Shown: positions 4,027 to 17,857 of the stretch, one piece after another
Layout of the letters: each line of letters opens with the position of its first letter
How positions within the stretch are numbered: the stretch's first letter is position 1
Program-made: the position numbers and the translations under genes
Origin: an uncultured Planctomycetaceae bacterium
Lineage (GTDB): Bacteria > Planctomycetota > Planctomycetia > Planctomycetales > Planctomycetaceae
Direction of reading: 5' to 3'
DNA length: 64,000 bases
Assembly: GCA_963815195.1 (NCBI GenBank)
Contig: CAWFGE010000007.1
Span: 64,001-128,000 of the forward strand
Notes under the pieces: generated by a model
The model's input: the letters and a program-made list of their open reading frames with translations, nothing else
Databases searched by the model: none
Told to the model about the DNA's origin: nothing

Positions 4027-5436
4027 TCATAGAGCCATGTTGACCCGCACGCCATAGACGAATGCATCATTCGCGATCACACCATTCCCCGGATGGATGT
4101 ACTGTAGGTCTGGGCTGATATCCATCCAAGGGTTGACTTGGATCTTGTAGTAAGCCTCGACGCCGGTTCCGTTTCGTGGACCAAAAATCGCTTGCGGCAG
4201 CGGACCAAACTGGTTGCTGGCACCGACAAAGTACCAGCCGACGCCGAACTGATCGCCACGTTGCTTTCCGAGTGGGCTGTAACCTCCGATGCCGGCACTG
4301 AGGAAGTATTGGACGGGGGTCGGATTTCCATCGCTGATGGAGGCCCGCCCAAAGAGTCCGTAGCCGCGCCCAGGTTTGTCCACGTATTGCACCAGGTATT
4401 GGTCGAAGCCATAGTAGATCGTGTAAGAATCGTTGAGGGTCGGAAAACCAGGGACTGTTGGTTCGGGGTAGACGCCCGGAGGAGGCTCGGCAAAACTGAG
4501 ATCGGTCAGTTGGACATGTTTCCAAACCCCGCCCACGTGCTGATCACCTTGCTTGCCGAAGAAGTTGGTTTTCACCTTCACTTCGCCCCCGACAATCACG
4601 CCCTTGGAGTACAGGCTATCCAGATTGTCAAAGAAATTTTTTGTTCGATCCTGGGGATCGAGGACGAATCCGGAAATCATGCCCCACTCTTGCGGCATGG
4701 CCACGCCAGCCATAAATGAGCTGTACGGCAGGCCGAGCAGGAATGCCGGGTTCTGACAAAACGCTTGATTCGTGAACTGTTGGGTGCCATTTCCCCCCGC
4801 AAACTCATCCACATCGGCGGAGCCCGGCACCACCTTTTTGCCAGCAAAGACCACAAAATTTTCCGACAGCGGCTGGGTGAGCACGAAATTGGTGAGGAAA
4901 AGATCGCCGGGATTGTTAGGCGCTGTTGGAAGGAAAGCACCAAACACAGCCGGAGCAAATGCGCCGGTATTGAGTGAAACGTTGCCGTATTGTCCGTACC
5001 AGTGCTCTGCAGTGACCAGCAACTTGCCCTGGGGCAACCCGCCGAACTTCTCCAAGTCAAAGATCGCGTTGTATGTGCCGCGACCGGTGTACTTGAACGT
5101 GTCTCCTTGACCAAGAAGGGGGACCGTGGGGCGGTCAATGCCACCTGCGACCCCAAAGGCGAATTGCGTTGATTGCCCGGTAAACGTAATGCCGGAATTC
5201 TGGAGGTCTGTTCGAAGGCCACCCCAGTCGCTTGTCAGGGTTGGCCGCGTCCAGAGATCACAGCCGCAGTCCGAAAACACAGAGTCGCAGCCGTTCGACT
5301 CCGACAGGCAGGCGGAAACGCTGTCTACAGCCGAATCAGCAGCCTCGCCGACTGAACTCTCCTGCGCCGCTGCCTGATGCCACCACAGAGAGAGCATCGC
5401 GGTGATGGCTATGAATCGAATATTCGCTAAGGGCAT
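4027..5436 (-). CDS. Carbohydrate-selective porin, OprB family
   Basis: Signal peptide, LTSDWGGLRTDL N-terminal motif, and a beta-barrel C-terminus (EAYYKIQVNPWMDISPDLQYIHP...GVRVNMAL). Confidence 0.85.
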   Translation of the reverse strand: MPLANIRFIAITAMLSLWWHQAAAQESSVGEAADSAVDSVSACLSESNGCDSVFSDCGCDLWTRPTLTSDWGGLRTDLQNSGITFTGQSTQFAFGVAGGIDRPTVPLLGQGDTFKYTGRGTYNAIFDLEKFGGLPQGKLLVTAEHWYGQYGNVSLNTGAFAPAVFGAFLPTAPNNPGDLFLTNFVLTQPLSENFVVFAGKKVVPGSADVDEFAGGNGTQQFTNQAFCQNPAFLLGLPYSSFMAGVAMPQEWGMISGFVLDPQDRTKNFFDNLDSLYSKGVIVGGEVKVKTNFFGKQGDQHVGGVWKHVQLTDLSFAEPPPGVYPEPTVPGFPTLNDSYTIYYGFDQYLVQYVDKPGRGYGLFGRASISDGNPTPVQYFLSAGIGGYSPLGKQRGDQFGVGWYFVGASNQFGPLPQAIFGPRNGTGVEAYYKIQVNPWMDISPDLQYIHPGNGVIANDAFVYGVRVNMAL

Positions 5437-9175: not shown

Positions 9176-9850
9176 TGAGGTGGACCCCATTCTTTGGACA
9201 GCGAACGGGGTTGTTTAGTGGTATGAGTCAGCGGCAGACGAGGCCCTTCATAGGCCTCGTCGTCTGCCGCCGATGACAGGGGGCCAGGTCCGAGACCTCA
9301 CCAGTTCCCCCACCGTTTTGCACGAAACTTTGTTTCATTTTTCGTCCACCGCTTTGTCCAGCCTTCAATCTTTTCCCGCGTAGATCCTCGCCGGCGTTTG
9401 ATAGCCCAACGATTGATGGATCCGTTCCTCACAATAGAACTCAAAGTAACGCGATAACTGCTCTTCGGCCTCCCAGCCATCCGCGTAGTCCTTCAAGTAG
9501 ACCTCTTCGTATTTCACGCTTCGCCACAGGCGTTCGATGAACACGTTGTCCAAGCACCGCCCTTTGCCGTCCATGCTGATCGCCACGTTCAAGCGTTCCA
9601 AACGCTTCGTGAATTGGATCGCCGTGAACTGGCTGCCTTGGTCGCTGTTGAACACTTCGGGCCGCGAGATCGACAAGGCTTCGTCCAACGCCTCCAGGCA
9701 AAAACTTCCTTCCAACGTATTCGACAATCGCCAGCTCAAGACGTACCGGCTGAACCAGTCCATCACCGCCACGAGATACAGATATCCGTGCTGAAGCGGG
9801 ATGTATGTGATGTCGGTGGACCACACCTGGTCCGGCCGGACGATCTCGTT
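9176..9850 (-). mobile_element. IS3-family element, right-hand part (integrase core 9365-9850; right end at 9176-9200)
   Basis: VWSTDITYIP..YLVAVMDWFSRYVLSW..FNSDQGSQF..DNVFIERLWRSVKYE. The minus strand ends tgtccaaagaatggggtccacctca, an IS3-like right end. Confidence 0.85.
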
Positions 9851-10786: not shown

Positions 10787-11103
10787 TTATCCACAAGGCG
10801 AGTCCGTTAAGTAAGTTAAGATCTTTGATCTTTAGATCAGTTAAACAGTTAGCTGTCCGGCAACGCTTTGATCGGGCGGACCATTTTGAGGGTTCGTGCG
10901 CCTAATCGCCCGATGATTTGCGCCTAATCGCCCGAGTCAGCGTGCGCCTAATCGCCCGATAGCTTTGCGCCTAATAGCCCGACGGTATCCACAGAGAGCA
11001 AACGGGGGGAGAACAGCGACTCAGAGGCTGGAACTTCACGAAATCTGCCGATTATCGGGATGTGAGCCGTGTCGTTTGACCCACTTTACGCCTAATCGCC
11101 CGA
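10787..11103. promoter_or_regulatory. Iteron-type plasmid replication origin
   Basis: Perfect DnaA box ttatccaca at 10787-10795 and an AT-rich GATC-repeat segment at ~10806-10850. 17-bp iterons tgcgcctaatcgcccga at 10897, 10919, 10943, 10966 and 11087. Second near-DnaA box at 10985-10993. Confidence 0.8.
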
Positions 11104-11219
11104 CTCCAAGGTTTCCAAGCTGTTGAGTTGAAACGATTCCGAAAATATGCCCGACGAGGTGCGGCGTCCCGCAAAGCGGGGCCATTCGCGGCGGGGATGG
11201 TCATCCGACAGCCGGGTGC

Positions 11220-11699
11220 GATGGACGAAGTGCCGCGTCCTTCATGTCCTTTGTCAACCGGTAATGCTTGCCGACCATGCTCAGCACGATCACCGCCTTG
11301 GGCTGCCCGTTGCGAATATCTTGAGCTTGTCGCAGCACTTCGGTGGCTTTCGCCAGCGCCGCGCACTTCCAACATACTAGCTTTGCAGGGAACAATGGCG
11401 AGGTTGGCGCGAAGCAATAATGCCCGGCTGGTTTCCGTTTGGCTGCCGGGACCGTCGGCCACGACGAAATCCGCTTCCTGGGCCAGGTTGGGCAATTCGC
11501 TAAGAATTACGTCCGGATTGTCGAGGCGAACGCTTTTGACTTGTGGGACGGCTTCGCGAATCCATTCGGAGGAGGATTGCTGACTGTCGCAATCGGCCAG
11601 GATCACTTGATGGCCCTGCTCGTGCAGCCAGCCCGCCAAATGCACGGCCACCGTGGACTTGCCGACGCCGCCCTTGGAATTTGCGATGGCGATAATCAT
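11220..11699 (-). pseudogene. parA: ParA-family partition ATPase (frameshifted near 11360, 3' truncated)
   Basis: MIIAIANSKGGVGKST deviant Walker A, then LADCDSQQS and VVADGPG. Confidence 0.85.
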
Positions 11700-11709
11700 G
11701 GGGCGAACC

Positions 11710-12030
11710 TACCAGCAGTCTGGCAGGCTGGCAAGCATTATTTCCTGCAAGCCAGCAAGACAGTTCGCCATCACGACAACATGTCATCCTGATGGCTTGA
11801 TGGAAAGCCAGTCGTCTTTCACCCTTGCAAGATGGATTGCTTGCAAGCTGTCCCATTGTCGTTCCAGATTGCTGGCAAGCTGACATGCATGCAAGCCGGT
11901 TGGATGGCTCGCAAGTTGTCTGGCAAGACAGCATGCGGACCGGCTTGAAAGATGCTTTCCCGGTGAAATCTGCCTTAGCAAAGCTAAGGGAAGATGTCTG
12001 AACACAAATCATTTGGGCCAGCAAGCCAAC
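11710..12030. repeat. Dispersed GCAAG/GCTGGC short repeats upstream of parA (centromere/operator-like)
   Basis: Repeated gctggcaagc, gcaagccagc, gcttgcaagc and tctggcaagac motifs. Confidence 0.5.
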
Positions 12031-12254
12031 TGACTCAGGGAAAGCGAGGAAATGGGCGGGCGATCTGGCAGGGAAATGATCGGTTGGAGACGGAGTAAGT
12101 TGGGTGGCTGAGACGCCGCCCGACTGGAGCCGCACCTGCGTCAGGACTTCGGGATGCGGGACGGCGTCCGGGTTGTCCGGGTGTTCGGCGTCAATTAGCT
12201 CTGCTCTTTAGCGTCAATTAGATTGACCGTGCAAGAGGGAGAAATCGACGGGCA

Positions 12255-12707
12255 TCAGCCTTTGGAGCCAGGCTTTGACTCGTCCGAATCGGCCGAGTTT
12301 TTCTTGTTTTTCTTGGCGGTTTCCAAGCGGTAGCTGGGGATGTTCAACTCGATGATGATCGAGTGATGGATCAAACGGTCGATGGCCGCCGCGGTCGTCA
12401 TGGGATCCTTGAAGATTTGCTCCCATTGAGAGAAAGGCAGATTGCTGCTGATCAGAAGGCTGCCCCGTTCGTAGCGTTCGGCCAGGAGCGTGAACAGCAC
12501 TTCCATCTCCTCGCGGCTCTGTTGAACATAGCCCAAGTCGTCGATGATCAGCGCTTCGTAGCGGCTGAGCTTTTTGATCCACTTCTCCAACCGCAGGTCG
12601 CGTTTGGCCCGCAGGAGTTCTTGGACCAGCATCTGGCAGGTTGTGAATAACACCGTGCGGCCTTGACGCGCGAGTTGGTCGCCGAGTGCGGATAACAGAT
12701 TCGTCTT
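12255..12707 (-). pseudogene. istB: IstB ATPase, C-terminal part
   Basis: KTNLLSALG...LIIDDLGY...LLAERYERGSLLISSNLPFSQWEQIFKDPMTTAAAIDRLIHH. Confidence 0.9.
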
Positions 12708-12710
12708 GAC

Positions 12711-14784
12711 TCAGCCATTGTTGTGCCCCCTTGGGATAGTGATTTGCTCGGTTTCGTGATTTTTGAGTTTTAGCATGGCGTCTTTAACCTCCTCAGTTTT
12801 GGGAAACAGATAGCACCGATAAATTGGATCGACAGAAACCACGATCTGTCTTTGCTCAATTTTATGATACATCCAGGATATGTTGCGCCGATTTCCTGAG
12901 CCATTTCCGCGGCGGTCCAGGCATGGGGCAGGTTCTTTGCACGCGGGCTTTTGATCCGGTAGCGATGTCTTAACTTGTTCACGATTTGCGAGGTGAATTG
13001 TTCGCCACGACAGGGATGATGGCCTTCGCGATTGAGATCCGCCGCGATCATTTCACTCGACCGGCCTTCGCTGGTTTCTTGCCGGATGCGTTCCACGATG
13101 TGCTCTTCCAAGTCCGTGTGTTTCATTGAAAAACGCCGTAGGAGAGCCGACGTTTCGGTCACCGAACCGCCGGCCCAGACCATGCGAATTTGCACCAGCC
13201 CATCCGATTGCCGGTGAAGATTGACTCCCGTAATCATCGTCCGCAACAACGACTTCTTCGCCTCCCAAGACAACTCGGGCCAGAGTTCGGGAAGCTGCCG
13301 CCCGACATCCGCGAAGGCGTCTCGCAAGGACTTTGGTACGCGGATCGGTTGGGGAATTTCTCGGCGGGCATCCGCCAGGTTTTCTTCGGCTTGCTTTTGC
13401 GCCAACAAAGCCGATTCCCATTTCTCTTCCAGACTGGCCGCAATCAAACGGTTCTTGGGATCGACACAGTCGTATTGTTGCTCGGCCCGATGGGCGGCGT
13501 ATTGCAACGCCCGACGTCTTGCTCCAAATGCCGAACCACGTCCGCATGCGTGCGAGCCCTTTCGGCGGAGAGTTTCTCCAACACATCGATCTCGGCAGGC
13601 CGCAGCACTTCAAAGAAAGCTTCCGTCACCGCCTCGTCGATCTTGTTGCCGCCCAAGTACTGGCAGGATCGTTGGGCGTAATGCCGATAGCCAGAATTGC
13701 ATGAGTATTGAAAGCGGTTCTCCTTGTAATTCACTCCCATCGTTCGACCGCATTTTCCGCAGCGCAATAAGCCCGTTAACAACGCGCAGCCGTTGCGGAT
13801 GGCTTGCTTGGCGGCGAGTCGTTGTTGGATGCGGAGGTTGTTTTGAGCGATTCGGCGTTGGTTGTCTTCGTACTGCTCCCAACTGATATAGGCCGGGTAG
13901 ATGCCGGGAATTAAGACCGACCATTCCGCTTGGGGCCGGCGCGTGCGACCCGTGGCAGGACGACCGGGAATTCGTAGCGTGGGATCGACTTGCCGACGCC
14001 CATGAGCAAACGCGCCTGCATAAGCCGGGTTATGCAGGATCGAGCCCAACGAAGCGGCCGTGGCTTCTCTCCAAAACACTTCGCCCGCATAAAGGCCCGA
14101 AACTTGGCGCCGGGGAATCTTCAAATTTTTCTTGGCCAGGAACGTCAAGACTTTTTGAATCGTGCCCAACTCCACGAACTTGTCGAACACCAAATGCAAT
14201 CGCTTTTGAATGCTCAGATCGGGATCGAGCATCACCGCCTTGTCCAGATTGCGGACCAAGCCCGTCGGCAAGTTTTGCACCAACTCGCCCCGCGCGGCCT
14301 TCGACAATCGACCCGCGTCCAATCGCAATCGGAGGCTATGGAGCTCTGCCGAAGACATCGTGCCCTTCAAGCCTAAGAGGAGCCTGTCGTTGAAATCCCG
14401 TGGATGATACAACCCATCCACATCACCGATGAGTGTGTCAAAGATCGCACACAATTCCAACAGTCGATGCCAATCCACATCGTTGCGGGAAAGCCGTGAA
14501 ACTTCATAGCCCAGAATGATGCCGACCTTACCCAAGCCGACGTCGGCGACCATCTGTTGAAAGGCCCCGCGTCCCGCCGTTTGCGTGGCCGATTGCCCTT
14601 GATCATCCTCCAGGATGCTGACTTGTTCCGGCTTCCACCCCAACTCCAACAACCGGGTTTTCAAGGCTCGCTGGTTGTGGGCACTCTCTTGGTTTTTCTC
14701 GACCTGCTTCGTCGTGCTCTGACGAAGATATACGATCCCGCGGCGATTCAAATGGCTGGTGCTGACTTTCATCGATCCGTTCAT
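12711..14784 (-). CDS. Large serine recombinase (frameshifts near 13510 and 12885)
   Basis: IVYLRQST catalytic Ser, EVSRLSRN, recombinase domain (ILHNPAYAG), zinc ribbon LRCGKCG..YSC..C, coiled coil VDPKNRLIAASLEEKWE, and a C-terminal HTH. The stop lies 3 nt from the element end. Confidence 0.9.
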
Positions 14785-15140
14785 GCTCCAGTTCCTCCGT
14801 TAGAATGACGACGATTTGCTGGATGATCCGCTGCTGCTCTGGAAGAGTCAGACGGTTCCACACCTGGTCCGTGGCAATGGGTGACATCGGCTTCCCTCCG
14901 AGAAAGAATATCCCGAAAGGTAGTCACCAAATCCTGGAGCGCGTCCAGGGTCAGACAGGAAGTTTTTTGGGGAGGAGCGGTGGAAAGGTTCGTGCTGCTG
15001 ACGTCGATGTAGGTCATCTCGTCAGGAAAAATCTCGACTTGATAATACTGACGATAACCTGGCAGGCGGGCTAAGCCGAACAAATCAAATGTTCGGCCAT
15101 AAAGCGGATGGGCCGGATCGGTGACGGTGATCTCACCGCG
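14781..15140 (-). CDS. Small recombinase-associated protein (DUF5372/Y4bD-like; start uncertain)
   Basis: ITVTDPAHPLYGRTF...LTLDALQDLV. Its stop overlaps the recombinase start (ATGA). Confidence 0.55.
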   Translation of the reverse strand, partial: RGEITVTDPAHPLYGRTFDLFGLARLPGYRQYYQVEIFPDEMTYIDVSSTNLSTAPPQKTSCLTLDALQDLVTTFRDILSRREADVTHCHGPGVEPSDSSRAAADHPANRRHSNGGTGA

Positions 15141-15180
15141 CGATAACTGAGTGACCAGAGGTGTCTTGTGATGGTCGGAC

Positions 15181-15580
15181 CTTCCCCGAGCCGGGCGCCG
15201 AAAATCAGCAAGTTGTCGCGACGGTCCAAGAACGTGCCGCTCTTGAGGGTCTCGAATTGCTGGGTCACATGCAGGGGCAGCCGCGACCATTGGAATTGCT
15301 CCCAGGTTTTGCCTTCCAAGAGCTTCGAGTTCCTGAGCAGCCGATCGATGCGGTTTTGGTGACGGGCCTGGCATTCCTTCTGAGTCAATTCCCAGAGGTA
15401 TTGGGGATGCGTCCAATTCTCCCGCGCCGCCTGTTCGGCCACCATCGGGTATTGTTCCCGAAACGTCGGCAGCTTGAGTTCTTTCAGTTGGTCCGCCAAC
15501 CGGGCGGGATGGATCGCCGGCGAAGGACTCGCGGTCTTCGCCGCCCTGGGGGTCTTCGAGGGAGACGTTTTCTTCTTCAT
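15181..15580 (-). pseudogene. istB: IstB ATPase, N-terminal part
   Basis: LKELKLPTF...YLWELTQKECQAR..RIDRLLRNSKL..KTWEQF...NLLIFG, ending at the Walker A motif. Confidence 0.9.
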
Positions 15581-16465
15581 TATGAGAAACCTCCTGTGAG
15601 GGGAGTAAGGAATCGAACACGGACAGATCGGGAGGCTCGACGCGAACCTCCAAGGGACTGGGCAATTGCTGCCGGCGTTTGACGAGGTCCAGGACTTTCT
15701 CCGCCTGGACCGGAATGCCTTCGGAGAGGCACCACCTGAGCACGTCATCCACCAAGTCCAAGCCTTCGTGCTTGGCGGCGTGCAGGATTTTCAGATACTG
15801 CTTGATTGCGGATTTCTCGTCATTTCGGGAGACGAGTTGATCGTAGGCCATCCGAAACCGAGTCGTCGGATACAGATGATTGACGTATTTGTAATTGAGG
15901 AAGGCCCCCGGCTTTCGGATCAAGGAATCGATCACATGCCGAAAGTCGATGTGCTCTTTGCCTTGACCAAACAGCCTCGGGAGGCGTTCCAAGCAGTCCC
16001 CGCGATACCGAAGCTCCAGATGGTCTTGATGAATCAGAATGTCGAGTTCCAAGCCGACGTACTGGCTGCTCACCGAATACAGGTTGCGTTTGATCCTCAA
16101 GATGCAATCGGATTTGACCTGCACCCGCACGCGAGTGGTCGAGGGCAGCCGCTTGAAAGGCAATGGCCGAAGCGCCGCACATTCCTTCTCAAAGGCACTG
16201 GTCCGCCCGGCATTGCGGCGCGTCACCACTTGCTTTAAGAACTCCCGGTATGCCTCGACTGTCTCGAAGTCGCGATGGCCCCGCAGCCGGAGGGTCTGAT
16301 CCAGCCAGGTCTTGAAGTGGCCGTGGGCCGACTCCACATCCCCGTTCTCGTGAGGCTTTCGCACGTTGATCCGATGCCCTTTGAGGCCATAGTGATCCAA
16401 CAGCGCTTGGTACGCTCTCGCGAATTGCTTGTCGCTGGAGAGGTTGTTCACCGCCGCTGACAGGC
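15581..16465 (-). pseudogene. istA: IstA transposase, C-terminal part
   Basis: SLSAAVNNL...LLDHYG...HENGDVESAHGHFK...NLYSVSS...IDFRHVIDSLIRKPGAFLNY. Confidence 0.9.
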
Positions 16466-17651
16466 TGCACAGCGTTTCGAAGCTCGGCACGCGGCCGCGT
16501 TCGAGGGCCTGTTTCAGTCCCGTGAGCCGCCAGTTGGTGTAGCCGTGGATGTGGCCGTTTTCGTCGCCGCATTGCTCATAGAGAGATGCCAACCCTTCGT
16601 TGAACCAGGACGGGCAAGCCGGAAAATTGGCGGCCATGAAGGGGTGCACGATTTCATGGACCAGCGTCCCGCCGCCGGTGGAGATATTCATCACCAAGGC
16701 GTTGTGGGCCGCACTGTAATAGCCGTAGGGCGTCGTGGGCCGGTCCCTCAAAAACTCCCAGGCGTGTTTTTCGTAGCTGTCCTTGTCCTGAAACAGCCAG
16801 ACATTGATGATGTCGTCCGGATCGCGCTGGAAAAAATCTTTCTTGAGTCTTTTGACCGCCCACTCGACCGTCTGCCGGCTGCGGCGTTTGACCCTCTCCG
16901 CGTCTTCGTCACCGACGACGACGAAGGGCTTTTCAATGACCATCGTGAAATCCCGGCCGGCGAGTTTCTCCTTCAGCCCCAGGATGTGCTGGGCAAAGTC
17001 GGCATCGGTCATCCGCCGGGTCCTGGAGCCTTCCTTCAAATGATCCGGAACCAGGGGCATGCGGATCAGCGTCCATTTCTTGGGATCGTACTTCAGCGGC
17101 CAGAGCTTCAAAAACAGTTCGCGGTCCATTCGCCGATAGGCCCCGTCCTTCGCCGCCGGCTCGTGGTAGATGACTTCATCGTCCCGCTGGGAATAGCCCA
17201 CGATCAGGCGGAAATGCTCCGTGGTGCGGGGCTGGTCGCTGTAATGCATGCAGACGATGGAAGGCACGCCTCGCTTCAGGTCGCGGTGGAGTTGGCGGAA
17301 TTGGGCGTCCAATTCGGCCTCCGCGCGGTCGGCTTCGATCGCATACCACGCCGGGCCGATGTCGAAGCCGATGGTTTTGAGCGAGTTTACCAAATCCCGC
17401 GTGTAGCAACCTCGGCCCAGGAGCGGATCGAGACCGGATTGATCGAACACCCAATCTTGATCGACCGTCCGCCCCAACCGCTGCATCGCCATCGCCACGC
17501 AGGCTTCGCCGCAGAAGTCGGGCTTTTGCCGAATGTGGGGCATGTTTTCGATCATCACACTGTCGAGCGGGGAATCGACCTGGGCGGTCGAACTCCACAA
17601 AACGCCCAACGAACTCGGCAACAATAGCAAAGGGACCGCAAACTTCCACAT
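16466..17651 (-). CDS. Exported C39-like peptidase plus gluzincin-like domain, 3' truncated and fused in frame to istA
   Basis: Signal peptide; HIRQKPDFCGEAC...EHFRLIVGY..YHEP; HEIVH...WFNEGLASLYE. Confidence 0.75.
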
Positions 17652-17700
17652 GGGATTCGCCTTTTTGGAAGATGAACTTGGGTTTGAAAAAAGTAGGCCC

Positions 17701-17783
17701 GCCCCGTTGGGGCTTTTGCATCTTGTTCGTTCCCGTTTCCCAGGGCTTCGCCCTGGGCTGACATAGAGCCGGACCTTCGGTCC
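17701..17783. repeat. REP-like cluster of short palindromes
   Basis: gccccgttggggc, cccagggcttcgccctggg and ggaccttcggtcc. Confidence 0.65.
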
Positions 17784-17857
17784 TTTTTCCGTAATTTGGA
17801 ACGACTGAATTGAATATCCGTACTTCAAAAAGCTCAGGAAATTGGTTTGGTTTTCAA

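Follow-up and report, generated by a model that had tools for sequence, protein, structure and literature searches.

What occupies the Walker A codon of a transposon's istB gene, and how did it come to lie there? The question is raised by a 64,000-nucleotide (nt) stretch of DNA, referred to here as the window, from an uncultured Planctomycetaceae bacterium, in which istB of an IS21-family insertion sequence (IS) is split at its Walker A lysine codon by an insert carrying a large serine recombinase (LSR). The insert is one copy of a multi-copy 2.48-kb LSR element; this element or its relatives are found at the AA of the Walker A lysine codon in eleven IS21-family istB genes, and it probably moves by recombinase-catalysed formation of a circle followed by re-integration. 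Coordinates below are positions in the window, and istB, the element and the recombinase gene all lie on the minus strand.

The split istB gene and its insert

Read along the minus strand, the upstream piece of istB ends in ...ttcggcgcccggctcgggg AAG, with the AAG at 15183-15181; the letters before the break are ...ttc ggc gcc cgg ctc ggg g AAG. A further 2,473 nt follow (15180-12708) before istB resumes at 12707 with AAG acg aat ctg tta tcc gca ctc ggc, which encodes K-T-N-L-L-S-A-L-G. Such a split had been described in an earlier note on this DNA, made from the sequence alone, and it is borne out both by the reading of the strand and by the protein families. Both halves match the AAA+ domain PF01695, and the downstream half also matches the NCBIfam family IS21_help_AAA (NF038214, positions 105-231). 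As the two pieces align with successive, separate portions of the Pfam model (Table 1), the break must lie inside the Walker A loop.

An uninterrupted paralogue elsewhere in the genome (on C9) reads TTC GGC GCG CCC GGC TCC GGG AAG ACG at this place, that is F-G-A-P-G-S-G-K-T continuing N-L, and so contains the complete loop GAPGSGKT. Against this paralogue the upstream piece in the window lacks two letters near 15194/15195, where GCGCGCCC has become GCGCCC; the earlier note had taken this lesion for an indel of 1 nt. The two letters are present in one contig of public run X1. The similarity of the window IS21 to the other type A copy (the istB types are defined below) is confined to 12182-12704 and 15184-16467, and therefore istA lacks its 5' part and the IS21 is a remnant.

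The insert carries a small open reading frame (ORF1), whose product contains the motif HPLYG, and the LSR gene, as the note had stated; ORF1 can be read directly, and Pfam domains identify the recombinase in an intact copy. In the window its gene begins at 14784, and the TGA stop (12713-12711) lies 3 nt before the AA at 12707-12706, again as described. The intact gene has 691 codons and is found in three of the eight copies compared (L002, L005 and L007). In L002, the Resolvase domain PF00239 covers residues 17-167 (E 6.2e-17), with ...VYLRQST... readable in the translation, and is followed by PF07508 (Recombinase, residues 197-315), PF13408 (Zn_ribbon_recom, residues 335-389) and then some 300 residues that match no family. 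This is the domain organisation of large serine recombinases, from which catalysis of attP x attB recombination between attachment (att) sites is predicted. No match to DUF4368 is found on the intact protein at E <= 0.01. The best NCBIfam match is XisF (NF041201), at 70.8 bits against a cut-off of 375, and the protein thus falls outside the XisF type.

The letter missing from the window gene at 12887-12890 is present in contigs of public runs X1, X2 and X3, and that missing at 13507/13508 in contigs of X1 and X2; contigs of three public runs hold the element without the frameshifts of the window. Homopolymer errors were considered as the source of these frameshifts and set aside, as the indels lie outside long runs; mutation and assembly error are both possible.

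A second small frame, ORF2 (MSPIATDQVWNRL...), overlaps the tail of ORF1 and the start of the recombinase gene in another frame. Its pattern VW..L...EQ...IL.EE and its open frame are conserved in six elements (the window copy, L031, L032, L039, L040 and L050), and it matches no Pfam or NCBIfam family.

Element ends and the crossover site

The two junctions of the element can be read directly, and the circle junction proposed in the earlier note agrees with that reconstructed from the joined ends. The sequence common to both junctions is in every case AA only, the third letter G being supplied by the element at the left junction and by the lysine codon at the right. Type C istB genes provide the relevant counts: their target is GGA AAA ACT, and the run of A is three at the left junction, four at the right and five in the target, with two contributed by the element ends. 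From the counts at attL, attR and the empty site it follows that AA is the only core common to both junctions. The note's proposal that excision would rebuild the P-loop agrees with the junctions, but the single AAG that it expected to be left behind has to be replaced by this AA. A 2-nt core is the expected remnant of serine recombinase action.

With one AA core, the predicted circle measures 2,476 nt for the window copy and 2,478 nt for intact copies. The joined ends form an imperfect inverted repeat around the non-palindromic AA, with 7-16 of 20 identities between P and reverse-complemented P', and in one relative (L032) they contain a perfect 10-bp repeat. Judged by these features, the ends are organised as expected for an LSR, with imperfect inverted repeats on either side of a putative 2-nt crossover core. 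The target arms are the codons for h-h-G-x-x-G-x-G-K-[TS]-H/N. The orientation of the element relative to istB is constant, both in the nine copies of this genome and in all eight cases elsewhere, which fits a core that is not palindromic.

Copies in the genome

The genome (8.87 Mb in 25 contigs) contains ten matches to the insert, of which seven are full, one is cut by a contig end, one is truncated at 681 nt and one is a short stretch of about 90 nt, 81% identical, from the right end of the element. The nine element copies are at least 99.6% identical (99.6-100%). All nine left flanks end in the ...GxGK P-loop codons of istB, and all seven available right flanks continue K-T or K-S. Three types of istB are distinguished by these flanks: type A, with ...GGCTCGGGG on the left and AAG ACGAAT on the right (one left flank); type B, with ...GGAACTGGG and AAG AGCCAT (three); and type C, with ...GGGACGGGA and AAA ACTCAT (five). 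They are unrelated at the DNA level and their C-terminal parts share 25-42% protein identity. Types B and C have a full-length istA upstream; the element therefore struck IS21 copies that were otherwise intact. In the contigs of runs X1 and X2 the element is likewise flanked by type B and/or type C istB.

An istB census combined these flanks with a search of the six-frame translation using hidden Markov models (HMMs) of both istB halves. Besides the nine occupied sites, it found three more 3' parts that start at the lysine codon exactly at a contig end, and six unoccupied P-loops (on C9, C10, C15 and C23, and two on C14). The C9 gene is an uninterrupted type A copy, 96-98% identical, and the C23 gene an uninterrupted type B-like one, 90% identical. 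Interruption is universal among the type C istB genes found, with 5 of 5 left halves affected.

These data bear on the idea that one IS21 lineage carries the recombinase cassette as a fixed module, acquired in a single old insertion and diverging together with its host transposon. The element and istB do always have the same orientation and the same relative place, as such a module would. Nevertheless, near-identical elements lie in three istB types as divergent as those above, and closely related istB copies exist without any interruption, so that we give this idea almost no credence.

Type B istB also contains a second, different recombinase element, some 60 codons downstream of the first. 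It is seen at G000:C21:190-2780, at the ends of C19 and C14, and on C18 beside L002. This element is about 2.59 kb long, with a recombinase that is 36% identical and has an in-frame TAG. Its core is CC, at K-Q-L-P|K-R-S, with the junction CAATTGC-CC-AAGCGAAGC, and it has a HAFYG ORF of its own, in frame with a ribosome site and ATG at the far end.

Relatives in other genomes

A scan of a collection holding one genome per species yields seven related loci, five of them at 52-63% recombinase identity, and a metagenome scan a further 80 at 35-56%. In L031, from a metagenome-assembled genome of Chloroflexota, and L032 (Planctomycetales), both istB halves abut the element at the lysine codon; in L033 (Gemmataceae) and L034 (Phycisphaerales) the right junction lies at this codon and is the only one read. 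Among the metagenome loci, istB is split at the same codon and in the same orientation in L039, L040 and L050, and in L038 this is seen at the right junction only. The recombinases of L031, L032, L033, L034, L038 and L039 are 53-63% identical to that of the element, those of L040 and L050 44% and 40%. On the models of the two halves, the istB parts of these relatives meet the element at HMM position 111 (K) and at position 1 (K), respectively.

The flanks of close homologues had been named by the earlier note as the place to look for an istB split at this codon, and six of the seven closest relatives (52-63% identity) are indeed so placed. The three istB genes of this genome and the eight found elsewhere bring to eleven the number of different istB genes occupied at this codon. 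Sharing of the codon by nine copies and eight related elements is far beyond chance. In a recombinase tree of 80 rows, comprising the element, the second element (its stop treated as X), L018 and 77 of the 87 loci L031-L117, the element falls within a seven-row clade with an SH-like approximate likelihood ratio (SH-aLRT) of 100, all rows of which are istB-lysine cases. Ten loci were left out of the tree because the frame was broken, a stop occurred or the aligned residues numbered below 450. The picture of a minimal site-specific parasite, living in another transposon at its most conserved motif, is strongly supported by the near-identical copies in three istB types, the empty sites and the relatives in other phyla, and this part of the earlier proposal holds.

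Elements in the opposite orientation also abut the istB P-loop. L018 (G001:C20:1-3598) and L106 (3641) carry recombinases that are 34-40% identical. The L018 junction (GGCCAA|CCGGGG) precedes the lysine codon of a type C istB by about 13 nt; in L106 the recombinase gene has its stop directly against ...G-P-P-G-A-G, encoded on the other strand.

The more distant relatives point to a broader pattern. When 134 of the 144 listed flank fragments, from 62 loci (within L043-L114, with recombinases 35-44% identical), were compared with Pfam, 31 loci had mobile-element gene families in their flanks, two had only other families and 29 had no match; an adjoining mobile-element gene is not proof of insertion, and the gene is split on both sides in only some loci, such as L103. 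The families are the reverse transcriptase of group II introns (8 loci), DDE_Tnp_1 or DDE_Tnp_1_6 of IS4/IS5 type (7), IS66 parts (4), the helix-turn-helix (HTH) or DDE_3 domain of IS630 type (4), rve (3), other serine recombinases (3), the IS91 zinc domain (1) and, in L106, an IstB in reverse orientation abutting the recombinase stop (1). On the recombinase tree, the IS66 and istB-lysine labels cluster, and the reverse-transcriptase label does so more loosely. In addition, 460 plasmid records, mostly rhizobial (e.g., NZ_CP088153.1, L118), contain recombinases that are 37-40% identical and annotated only as 'recombinase family protein', often adjoining IS66 tnpB or IS630 transposase genes.

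We lean, with less assurance than for the istB element itself, towards placing the element in a large and still undescribed radiation of IS-sized LSR elements, of which it would be one branch and whose members would live exclusively within genes belonging to other mobile elements. Each subclade would read a conserved codon of its own, in the Walker A motif of istB, in the transposases of IS66, IS4/IS5 and IS630, in group II intron reverse transcriptases or in other recombinases, and all would sense whether they are free or integrated by means of a DUF5372 gene that the attachment site divides in two and that only the circle makes whole.

A gene that spans the element ends

ORF1 is the candidate for such a gene in the present element. 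It is open from the very left end and its TGA stop overlaps the ATG of the recombinase (ATGA). In the integrated state the stretch from the left end to the HPLYG motif contains none of the starts ATG, GTG and TTG, and 26 of 35 related loci likewise lack an in-frame ATG upstream of the motif. At the right end of the element lie a predicted ribosome site and an ATG, which come into frame with ORF1 once the ends are joined. Joining in silico was possible for six elements with both junctions, and in all six the frame stays open, with an in-frame ATG 10-45 nt from the core. In L040 and L050 the joined ends contain AGGAGG-N8-ATG with an in-frame stop just upstream, and therefore the start of ORF1 can lie nowhere else. 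The recombinase stop falls two codons after the ORF1 ATG in the joined ends, so that it overlaps the start region of ORF1.

The first 29 codons after the junction were compared in four elements. There are 59 synonymous against 67 non-synonymous codon differences in the frame of ORF1, and 14/117 and 10/117 in the other two frames. The richness of the ORF1 frame in synonymous changes indicates that the stretch is coding and is not merely a binding site. ORF1 is thus predicted to be complete, and hence translated, only from the excised circle or from a tandem.

The ORF1 product itself passes no threshold of Pfam or NCBIfam and has no match to DUF5372 (PF17342) even at E <= 1, where the gathering cut-off is 25 bits. 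Its relatives point to a link: L016, L036, L079, L090 and L101 match DUF5372 at E 1e-18 to 1e-24, L084 does so at 25.4 bits and six others more weakly (E 9.1e-05 to 0.26), with L084, L117 and L102 as intermediate loci. An hhalign comparison of a profile of nine ORF1 sequences with one of five clear DUF5372 members gives 82.7%, E 9.5e-6, over 83 columns, and in a protein atlas DUF5372 clusters rank first for ORF1, at 0.94. The fold model is a four-stranded SH3-like barrel followed by a long helix, with a mean predicted local distance difference test score (pLDDT) of 72 that rises to 85-95 over residues 11-60. Its best structural matches, to SH3, KOW and Tudor-like barrels, offer no functional lead. 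Profile and model together suggest a distant DUF5372 relative, a predicted SH3-type protein.

Two other explanations of the frames around ORF1 were rejected. A 1,015-codon ORF at 14781-17828 on the minus strand is not one gene, for an upstream gene, the istA remnant, ORF1 and an alternative frame across istB happen to run together in it. Fusion of IstB with ORF1 through a frameshift is also dismissed on the reading, as ORF1 lies at +1 to istB whereas the G-GGA-AAG-like heptamer would give -1.

Mechanism and alternatives

In the mechanism that we favour, LSR dimers at both junctions would cut at AA, rotate and rejoin, as expected from the established chemistry of these enzymes. Recombination of attL with attR would release the circle and restore GGN-AAR-ACN/AGC in istB exactly, and re-integration by attP x attB would follow, its orientation fixed by the asymmetric AA. 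As the body of ORF1 begins at the left end of the element whereas its ribosome site and ATG are predicted at the right, the gene would be whole only in the circle or a tandem; the circle would then form a closed, translationally coupled loop of ORF1 and recombinase, raising both when integration is needed. The circle would also be the main source of both proteins. IstB is required for IS21 transposition, and insertion would knock it out. There would be no cost to the host, because the target is itself selfish DNA, and the target would be hard to mutate away, because it encodes a P-loop.

Several observations weigh against this account. The recombinase gene of the window has two frameshifts and cannot act alone, and only three of the eight compared copies have the frame open. 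Six istB sites of the same genome are unoccupied. One of the closest relatives, L037 (Pirellulales, 52% identity), is located in a tyrosine-recombinase gene, with the junction ...K|EVTPHTLRHSFATH... (4100-4300) adjoining an IS91-type zinc-binding domain, so that specificity is not absolute across the clade; a switch of target is possible in this case. The flanks are mismatched in three copies, L004 (on C16, type C with B'), L005 (on C12, B with C) and L007 (on C15, C with A), and several contigs end at the element, so that some copies may reflect rearrangement or assembly choice and not separate insertions. The circle junction and the restored istB, both of which the earlier note had suggested seeking, are absent from the contigs of four public runs, contigs being a form of data that drops rare forms; the genome assembly contains no circle or tandem junction either. 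Two contigs from X1 and X3 that bridge the insert site were considered as a repaired window copy and proved instead to be relatives of type A istB at 90-95%. As regards ORF1, the proximal ATG is CTG in L032 and L034, both of which have an in-frame ATG with a GGAG-type site nine codons upstream, and the protein passes no Pfam threshold and its fold match is generic, with a best Z of 5.8.

Some of these points would also be expected if there had been few insertions, one per istB type, and the element were now inactive, the extra copies having arisen passively through IS21 transposition, segmental duplication, homologous recombination or gene conversion. The left flanks are repetitive, five of nine being of the same type C and three of type B; the three chimeric copies show or mimic recombination between copies; five of eight copies have a frameshifted recombinase; and no circle is seen in the contigs of the four runs or in the assembly. 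This explanation has to contend with the finding that every left half of type C istB is interrupted, which leaves no type C IstB to move the composite, and with copies that are 99.6-100% identical, three of them intact. Furthermore, the presence of the same codon as target in at least eleven istB genes across phyla needs repeated site-specific insertion in any case. Passive copying accordingly seems unlikely, though it deserves more weight than the other alternatives. The window copy is a decayed member of an otherwise recent and probably active family; its ends are intact, and it could therefore still be moved in trans.

A further alternative is that the element serves its host or the IS as a reversible switch, in which regulated excision restores istB and turns IS21 transposition on, in the manner of the skin or fdxN elements. 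Conservative serine recombination would be expected to rebuild the P-loop exactly, the istA of types B and C is intact, and XisF is the best NCBIfam match, albeit far below its cut-off. The earlier note had suggested such a switch. In the window it is unsupported, because the IS21 is a truncated and dead remnant; the 2-nt deletion in istB, the frameshifted recombinase and the lack of any excision product or circle among the contigs also count against it. More generally, type B istB carries a second, different recombinase element, relatives occur in many other kinds of mobile-element gene, which fits parasitism better than regulation, and neither a regulator nor any sign of a host benefit is apparent. 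A switch is therefore improbable, well behind passive copying.

Features of the window

The coordinates of the element and of the split gene are collected in Table 1.

Table 1. Features of the istB locus and its insert in the window
Feature	Position	Strand	Description
istB 3' part	12255..12707	-	Lysine codon to stop; Pfam IstB_IS21 positions 106-236, E 8.7e-36
Right junction core AA	12706..12707	-	From junction reading
Element-specific DNA, window copy	12708..15181	-	2,474 nt; 7 more copies, full or nearly so, are 99.6-100% identical
LSR gene	12711..14784	-	Frame disrupted by single-nt deletions at two places, near 13507/13508 and 12887-12890
Predicted ORF1 ribosome site and start	12716..12732	-	AAGGGGG 12732-12726, ATG 12718-12716; in frame with ORF1 after joining
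ORF2	14603..14887	-	Small ORF in another frame
ORF1 body (HPLYG protein)	14781..15182	-	Open from the left end; contains ...DPAHPLYG...; stop TGA overlaps recombinase ATG
Left junction core AA	15182..15183	-	Walker A lysine codon positions 1-2; predicted crossover dinucleotide; from junction arithmetic, three istB types and other genomes
istB 5' part	15184..15580	-	ATG at 15580, extends up to but not into the Walker A lysine codon; Pfam IstB_IS21 positions 2-100, E 4.3e-12
istA 3' remnant	15581..16467	-	Homology to other type A copy (C9), 98.4% over 1,284 nt, ends at 16467

Elsewhere in the window, a cluster of CTTGCNAG words is found at 11728-11927, comprising eight of the twelve matches in the window, two of them palindromic. 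It lies just upstream of a parA-like ORF (11052-11699), whose translation looks frameshifted after about 110 codons, and may be a partition site. At 9176-9840 lies the remnant of an IS3-type transposase, for which the genome has at least 12 further matches of about 88% identity.

Significance

We know of no insertion-sequence family that is moved by a large serine recombinase. An IS-sized, multi-copy LSR element with relatives as widespread as those in the 460 plasmid records would thus be of interest in itself, and it represents mobile DNA that parasitises other mobile DNA where the victim is unable to alter the motif, which bears on the control of transposon load. It also accounts for many istB genes annotated as 'broken'. 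With one gene divided by its attachment site, the element may have a means, accessible to experiment, of sensing its free and integrated states. For engineering, attB, attP, attL and attR can be read directly for each member, and the three istB types served by one enzyme provide natural variation of the target. If the wider radiation is real, it amounts to a new insertion-sequence family and to a natural library of serine integrases with attB and attP readable from genomes.

Relationship to known systems

The integrases of phiC31 and Bxb1, SprA of SPbeta, SpoIVCA of the skin element and XisF of the fdxN element share with the present recombinase the order of Resolvase, Recombinase and zinc ribbon domains, insertion inside a gene and the expectation of exact restoration. 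Unlike these phage-type integrases and developmental elements, the istB element is only 2.5 kb long, has no phage and no recognisable directionality factor, and targets a multi-copy gene of a mobile element. The IS607 family is similar in being IS-sized and moved by a serine recombinase. IS607 elements encode a small serine recombinase with an N-terminal DNA-binding domain (HTH), usually together with TnpB, and show low target specificity. The present element falls outside that family, having the LSR domains in a protein of 691 amino acids and, in 2.48 kb, no room for a TnpB-sized ORF.

Genes of the DUF5372 family (PF17342) are found beside serine recombinases, for instance on rhizobial plasmids, and ORF1 shares their HP[LF]xG core, although it passes no Pfam threshold itself. 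A gene or signal laid across an attachment site is also known from other systems. In some mycobacteriophages attP lies inside the repressor gene, which makes immunity dependent on integration, and the circles or tandems of IS911, IS30 and IS21 have junction promoters; in these, as in the element, the joint reports whether the DNA is free or integrated. Inteins and homing introns occupy P-loop motifs, and selfish elements choose invariant catalytic motifs. These phages, IS circles, and inteins or introns use tyrosine integrases, DDE transposases and homing endonucleases, respectively, and none of them is a serine-recombinase element in the gene of another transposon.

A search of the literature found no description of a serine-recombinase element in istB, nor any of DUF5372. 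The main text of Durrant et al. 2022 (PMC10083194), which covers thousands of LSRs with their target genes, does not mention IstB, and the supplementary files examined contain no IstB, PF01695, DDE_Tnp or RVT_1, although further supplements to that paper could list such targets.

The closest likeness in route is to Tn4451/Tn4453, moved by TnpX, and Tn5397, moved by TndX, in which, as in the istB element, an LSR is the sole mobility enzyme, transposition passes through a circle and a 2-nt core is found at the ends. The TnpX/TndX transposons are several kb in length, carry cargo, have GA cores and insert at many sites. In contrast, the istB element lacks a DUF4368 match, has the core AA and no cargo, and targets one codon of one gene family. 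DUF4368 is present in 63% of the TnpX/TndX-type clade and has been linked to multi-targeting (Durrant et al. 2022, PMC10083194). The element is not multi-targeting in this sense, given that nine of nine copies and six of the seven closest relatives lie at one istB codon. Lyras and Rood reportedly found, in 2000, that the joined ends of Tn4451 create a promoter for tnpX. Creating a signal at the joint and completing a gene there obey one logic; in the istB element, it would be a coding sequence rather than a promoter that the joint completes.

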